Source: Escherichia phage vB_EcoM_KAW1E185
Reading direction: 5' to 3' (one strand)
Length of the DNA stretch: 64,000 bases
Sequence record: NC_054922.1
Of the stretch, positions 40,234 through 40,689 are shown piece after piece (positions within the stretch are counted from its first letter, which is position 1; every line of letters begins with the position of its first letter). Under the pieces are notes generated by a model. That model ran no database searches. It was not told the origin of the DNA and saw only the letters and a list, made by a program, of their open reading frames with translations. The position numbers were made by a program, and so were the translations under genes.

Positions 40234-40689
40234 TTATTTTAAATCATCTGCCCAATCGAGTTTAAGAGGCTCTTTGTATTCACGATCTAATACGACCGGA
40301 ATTTGTACATCACCGCTAAATGATAAGGGCCCAACATTATAAGACAATGTTATATGCGGTGTGTAATCATCAAAATCATGTGTAGCACCTAGTGCCCGCG
40401 CATACATGTGTCGACAACGCAGATATTCAGAATCTAGCACAAGTACAAGAGTCGATCCATCTTGTGTTTTCCATACTTCTAAATGTCCAGAAGAAGCTAC
40501 TTCAAAACTTCCACTCGATGGAACATATGGAACATTTACTCTCGAATAACATATGGTCGAATGAATTTTTTCTCTAGGAACTGGATTAGGAACACGTAAA
40601 GAGCGCTGAAGTTCTTCCAGCGCATCAAGTGTTAATTCTGAAAACTTAGCTGCTACATAAAGACCCGTTGAAAAGTCTTTAAATTCCAT
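40234..40689 (-). CDS. 57B: 57B-type 2H phosphoesterase (Acb1-like anti-CBASS cyclic-nucleotide phosphodiesterase)
   Basis: 151 aa; two H-x-T/S-x motifs (HSTICY, HITLSY); upstream of 57A as in T4. Confidence 0.7.

Follow-up and report, generated by a model that had tools for sequence, protein, structure and literature searches.

The stretch of DNA analysed here, referred to as the window, comprises 64,000 nucleotides of Escherichia phage vB_EcoM_KAW1E185 (NC_054922.1). The open reading frame listing of the window places a gene on the minus strand at 40234..40689, with an ATG start, 151 codons and a TAA stop, and the frame is unbroken from one end to the other. An earlier note on this DNA had put a 151-residue protein at these positions, leaving the strand unstated, and had described it as adjacent to gene 57A; both points hold, with 57A located directly upstream at 40689..40931. 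The features of the locus are the following:

40234..40689, minus strand: gene 57B, predicted from Pfam, PDB and T4 identity to be acb1, encoding a cyclic oligonucleotide phosphodiesterase of the 2H phosphoesterase type
40555..40563, minus strand: catalytic motif 1, H43-S44-T45 (T4 H44/T46), codons CAT-TCG-ACC
40348..40356, minus strand: catalytic motif 2, H112-I113-T114 (T4 H113/T115), codons CAT-ATA-ACA
40237..40260, minus strand: C-terminal lid, residues 144-151 (T4 145-152), including the stacking W146 (T4 W147), identical in sequence to T4
40687..40691, minus strand: TAATG junction, in which the 57A TAA stop and the 57B ATG overlap by one base (window AGATGAAGAATAATGG, T4 AGATGAAGAATGATGG)
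40689..40931, minus strand: gene 57A, tail-fibre assembly chaperone (Pfam GP57, E=5.2e-51; phrog_1002, tail fibre chaperone)
41287..41294, minus strand: candidate late promoter for 57A-57B within gene 1, with the late consensus of T4, TATAAATA, placed 356 nt upstream of 57A
40174..40239, minus strand: PeSL-like intergenic module of 66 nt that reaches into the 57B stop, with an early-promoter-like TTTACA-N17-TACTAT overlapping a 13-bp stem-loop

Although it is not T4, the phage is a closely related Tequatrovirus, and the gene shares its T4 neighbours, with gene 1 and 57A upstream and ipI downstream. Over 39500-41800 the nearest record is Escherichia phage 303Ecol101PP (99.7%), while no record covers more than 96% of the larger interval 35000-42000, for which TadeuszReichstein and RB18 are the best matches (~97%).

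Two H-x-T/S motifs are found in the translation of 57B, HSTICY beginning at H43 and HITLSY beginning at H112, at residues 43-45 and 112-114 as the earlier note had reported. That note had taken the pair as the signature of 2H phosphoesterases. The motifs are present, but the pair by itself is weak, because at least two H-x-T/S motifs occur in 16.6% of composition-preserving shuffles of the same protein, and it is therefore insufficient alone for an Acb1 claim. The pair is necessary, although not sufficient, for membership of the 2H phosphoesterase superfamily, and it is homology, as judged from the Pfam Acb1 score and the identity to T4, that lifts the observation far above chance. The Pfam model PF23474 (Acb1) matches with 202.7 bits, its gathering cut-off being 27 (E=2.6e-60), residues 8-149 of the protein aligning to positions 1-144 of the 144-position profile. 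The best PDB match is 7T26/7T27, also Acb1, with E=4.1e-62 and 68% identity over 141 residues. The protein is identical at 151 of 151 positions to residues 2-152 of T4 57B (NP_049750.1; T4 record NC_000866), and the 456 nt of coding DNA differ from T4 at three sites, all of them synonymous. Since T4 57B is the protein that was named Acb1 after activity-guided fractionation identified it as a 3'3'-cGAMP degrader (Hobbs et al., Nature 2022, PMC9117128), the earlier note was right to name it as the prototype of the family. Its description of the window protein as an Acb1-like, anti-CBASS enzyme is likewise borne out by the alignment with T4 Acb1 that it had proposed, which gives 100% identity with the catalytic histidines present, the extra N-terminal Met existing only in the T4 annotation. 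Neither of the outcomes that the note had named as refuting, missing catalytic histidines or a lack of resemblance to Acb1, was observed.

The residues known to operate in Acb1 are all found in the window protein, where their numbers equal the T4 numbers minus 1. The catalytic tetrad is kept as H43, T45, H112 and T114 (T4 H44, T46, H113 and T115), the base-stacking aromatics as Y11, W73, F106 and W146 (T4 Y12, W74, F107 and W147) and the glutamate that reads the adenine N6 as E140 (T4 E141). Erwinia phage FBB1 Acb1, the protein of the crystal structures 7T26 (apo) and 7T27 (with 3'3'-cGAMP), displays 68% identity over window residues 8-148 and has the same HxT/HxT tetrad, lid tryptophan and adenine-reading glutamate. 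It differs in carrying Phe and Tyr in place of W73 and F106 of T4 and the window, and in having one additional residue after window position 79. The FBB1 structures display the 2H phosphoesterase fold (PMC9117128), and a compact fold of this type can be safely inferred for the window protein from its 68% identity to 7T26. The assignment leans on this homology because the AlphaFold2 model computed from the single sequence reached a pLDDT of only 37.9 and a pTM of 0.30.

The junction between 57A and 57B departs from that of T4 by a single G-to-A change just upstream of the 57B ATG, T4 having ATGATG and the window ATAATG, with the upstream sequence otherwise unchanged. In T4 the TGA stop of 57A overlaps the first of two tandem ATG codons (an ATGA overlap), whereas in the window TAA ends 57A and the second ATG alone is kept, generating the TAATG arrangement; this is why 57B has 151 residues here and 152 in T4. 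The one-base overlap suggests translational coupling of the two genes. They are probably also co-transcribed, as one unit, from the candidate late promoter inside gene 1. The motif TATAAATA is found in T4 at the same distance of 356 nt from 57A (L001 6006-6013, against a 57A start at 5650). It occurs in the window no more often than expected by chance, and the candidate promoter is assigned by its consensus only. In T4 infection Acb1 activity begins at ~15 min (PMC9117128), and late expression of 57A-57B is consistent both with this onset and with a remark on Acb1 about 'later gene expression'. Between gene 1 and ipI the minus strand gave no intrinsic terminator in the terminator scan; the one terminator-like site lies inside gene 1, and the count is at chance level. 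Gene 1 itself (dNMP kinase) is listed as an open reading frame at 40931..41695 on the minus strand, its TTG start lying 13 codons ahead of the start annotated in T4 (MKLIFLSG...); as in T4, the true gene most likely spans 40931..41656.

Immediately downstream, a hairpin at ~40182-40211 (-18.2 kcal/mol, z=-3.2) belongs to the PeSL-like module that overlaps the 57B stop. Sigma-70-like promoters in 39400-42400 number 14 against 11.3 +/- 3.8 in shuffled sequence, which is not above expectation, and interpretation here was confined to sites that come back in each repeat of the module and agree with the PeSL consensus of the literature. The module is present in three copies on the minus strand (39516-39554, 39807-39872 and 40174-40239), each with TTTACA-N17-TACTAT overlapping a stem-loop, which precede ipI, an extra internal-protein gene and trna.4, one each, and the PeSL-like spacer after 57B is also conserved in T4. 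The window module fits the promoter consensus TTTACW-N17-TAYWAT of the promoter-early stem-loop (PeSL) cassettes of PST and T4, which are believed to underlie gene shuffling in phages of the T4 type (PMC4122927). By its sequence the copy downstream of 57B looks like such a cassette, bounding the 3-1-57A-57B block against the variable internal-protein region, which starts with ipI (Pfam IPI_T4, nuclease inhibitor, E=7e-54).

This region also holds an 83-residue open reading frame at 39555..39806 on the minus strand, flanked by ipI and trna.4. Its PHROG match is phrog_8111, 'internal virion protein' (E=2e-50); it belongs to no Pfam family, and T4 lacks a counterpart at that position. Its probable start, MKTYQEFIAEA, is annotated likewise in 303Ecol101PP and resembles the N-terminus of IPI, MKTFKEF, which would be a capsid-targeting sequence. 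The product may be an injected internal protein and possibly a candidate anti-defence factor. Further along, an open reading frame of 171 residues (38092..38607, minus strand) lies between tRNA-Gln and trna.2; it belongs to phrog_2290, has no Pfam match and is missing at that position in both T4 and 303Ecol101PP. The tRNA cluster of the window (36413-38005) comprises 10 genes (Arg, His, Asn, Tyr, Met, Thr, Ser, Gly, Leu, Gln) and differs in repertoire as well as in count from the 8 of T4 (Arg, Ile, Thr, Ser, Pro, Gly, Leu, Gln). Between tRNA-Ser and tRNA-Gly it contains a gene for a 216-residue GIY-YIG/NUMOD3 seg-like homing endonuclease (37111..37761, minus strand), exactly where 303Ecol101PP has tRNA-Pro; ARAGORN found no tRNA-Pro anywhere in the 64,000-nt window.

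Homologs of 57B were located by tblastn in 1,469 phage records, 497 of them at 99% identity or above and 442 below 60%. The DNA around the gene (2.3 kb) is mostly 95-99% identical among phage records, and a protein identity of at least 99% in 497 records, set against this background, is consistent with purifying selection. An alignment of 11 sequences was built from the window protein, T4, FBB1 and eight divergent homologs ranging from 66% down to 30% identity, which represent Muldoonvirus, Krischvirus, Tulanevirus, Lazarusvirus, Pseudotevenvirus, Schizotequatrovirus, Slopekvirus and an unclassified 440-kb Salicola phage. H43, T45, H112 and T114 are invariant in all 11, down to 30% identity. 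The gene order 3-1-57A-57B is found here, in T4 and in each of the seven further Straboviridae genera; in the Salicola phage acb1 does not follow 3-1-57A. From the conserved order, together with the downstream PeSL-like module, acb1 is therefore the last gene of the conserved block. Unlike most anti-defence genes it is not in the variable region, closing instead a core block in at least eight Straboviridae genera. Such core-like retention could reflect a second, CBASS-independent role of Acb1, of which late clearing of other adenosine-containing 3'-5' cyclic or linear oligonucleotides, or of RNA 2',3'-cyclic phosphate ends, would be examples. For the role and for the examples alike the chance is slim, and an essential housekeeping function is opposed by the normal growth of T4 delta-acb1 without CBASS (PMC9117128) and by transposon sequencing, which finds 57B non-essential.

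The same alignment displays variation outside the tetrad. E137 (T4 E138) is invariant in the 11 sequences and goes unnamed in the text of the primary paper, while the adenine reader E140 (T4 E141) is Q or D in two of them. The proteins of Pseudotevenvirus (Cronobacter phage vB_CsaM_leB, L007 1513-2085) and Slopekvirus (Klebsiella phage 150040, L009 1459-2082) keep the catalytic tetrad, are without the lid tryptophan and are extended at the C-terminus by ~45-50 residues that T4 Acb1 does not have. These may be variants with a different substrate gating.

How the window protein would work can be read from the T4 literature, which supplies the chemistry, the substrates and the CBASS defect, the present analysis contributing the identity to T4, the assignment to the Acb1 family, the conserved catalytic residues and the synteny. 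Besides 3'3'-cGAMP, T4 Acb1 degrades cUA and cAAA but not cGG; cA4 is not cleaved and the 2'-5' bond of 3'2'-cGAMP is left intact (PMC9117128). In T4 numbering the bases are stacked by Y12, W74, F107 and W147, the adenine N6 is read by E141 and the lid 145-152 covers the ligand, while the HxT/HxT tetrad H44, T46, H113 and T115 carries out a metal-independent cut on the 3' side of adenosine by way of a cyclic phosphate, the H44A/H113A protein being catalytically dead (PMC9117128). By analogy, the window protein would be a small, metal-independent enzyme that binds CBASS cyclic di- and trinucleotides containing a 3'-5'-linked adenosine (3'3'-cGAMP, cUA, cAAA, cAAG). Y11, W73, F106 and W146 would stack the bases, E140 would read the adenine N6 and the C-terminal lid would shut over the ligand. 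In the strained bound signal the adenosine 2'-OH would then attack the 3'-5' bond over H43/T45/H112/T114, the 2',3'-cyclic phosphate intermediate giving rise to a linear product with a 3'-phosphate. The CBASS effector would be deprived of its activating signal and the phage would escape abortive infection. In T4 itself, delta-acb1 suffers a >300-fold defect with CBASS (PMC9117128), and an independent transposon sequencing study (HIDEN-SEQ preprint) found 57B to be dispensable on K-12, with depletion on a host that carries CBASS. The strategy of destroying a nucleotide second messenger of host defence is shared with Apyc1, the AcrIII-1 ring nuclease and poxins, which differ from Acb1 in having structurally unrelated folds and other substrates.

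Existing labels would assign the gene to RNA metabolism, phrog_755 being described as 'RNA ligase' and the RefSeq T4 record giving 57B the same name. The product would then be a LigT/ThpR-like 2'-5' RNA ligase or an RNA 2',3'-cyclic phosphodiesterase with a part in repairing RNA or tRNA, and the tRNA cluster of the phage does lie only ~2 kb downstream of 57B. LigT and ThpR proteins (PF13563, PF02834) resemble Acb1 in the two H-x-T/S motifs, which are common to the entire 2H superfamily, in the 2H fold, seen for Acb1 in 7T26, and in a metal-independent chemistry through a 2',3'-cyclic phosphate. They differ in substrate, which consists of RNA ends, that of Acb1 being a cyclic oligonucleotide immune signal. 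At the level of the family the resemblance fades, for PF13563 (2_5_RNA_ligase2) produces a sub-threshold match to 57B (E=0.11) that is confined to residues 80-122 and reaches 13 bits where 27 are needed, and no NCBIfam model matches the protein at E<=1. Moreover, the identical T4 protein hydrolyses cyclic oligonucleotides and its deletion matters only with CBASS (PMC9117128). With the Pfam score below gathering, the NCBIfam search empty and the T4 experiments in contradiction, membership of an 'RNA ligase' family was rejected and a function in RNA repair is very improbable. The label looks like an annotation carried over from superfamily-level resemblance.

Loss of function would be another way for the gene to fall short of its T4 counterpart. 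Inactive acb1 alleles are documented in Tevenvirinae that evade Panoptes guard systems, both natural, as in the nonsense mutation of Bas43, and selected, as in the escapers of Bas35. The frame in the window is, however, intact from ATG to TAA, without one amino-acid difference from active T4 Acb1 over its 151 residues; every catalytic and contact residue is present, and the sole change at the 5' end, which drops the first tandem ATG, leaves the second in place. A decayed or inactivated allele is contradicted by this intact, T4-identical sequence and was rejected, its probability being close to negligible. The open reading frame is best read as the intact acb1 (57B) gene of a T4-like Tequatrovirus, predicted from sequence to encode an enzyme that destroys the CBASS signal, with a probability of about 0.97, and the evidence found for 57B of KAW1E185 contains nothing against an Acb1 identity. 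The finding is correct and ordinary. As the earlier note had recognised in calling it a known counter-defence gene, this is the already characterised Acb1 in unchanged form, and no new biology is involved.

The value of the finding lies in annotation and in prediction. Acb1 is the proper label for a gene that, in most of the ~1,470 phage records carrying a homolog, is entered as 'RNA ligase' or 'hypothetical protein'. Acb1 helps the phage against CBASS and is a liability against Panoptes guard systems of types I and II, and in T4 the relative contributions of Acb1 and Acb2 vary with the defence system. An intact allele is mildly informative, because natural loss-of-function alleles occur in T4-like phages. 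Carrying an allele that is intact and T4-identical, KAW1E185 would be expected to behave like T4 on CBASS and Panoptes hosts: it is predicted to evade CBASS and may be sensitive to Panoptes guard systems. The T4-identical allele thus yields a testable host-range prediction, which would be relevant if KAW1E185 were considered for therapy.
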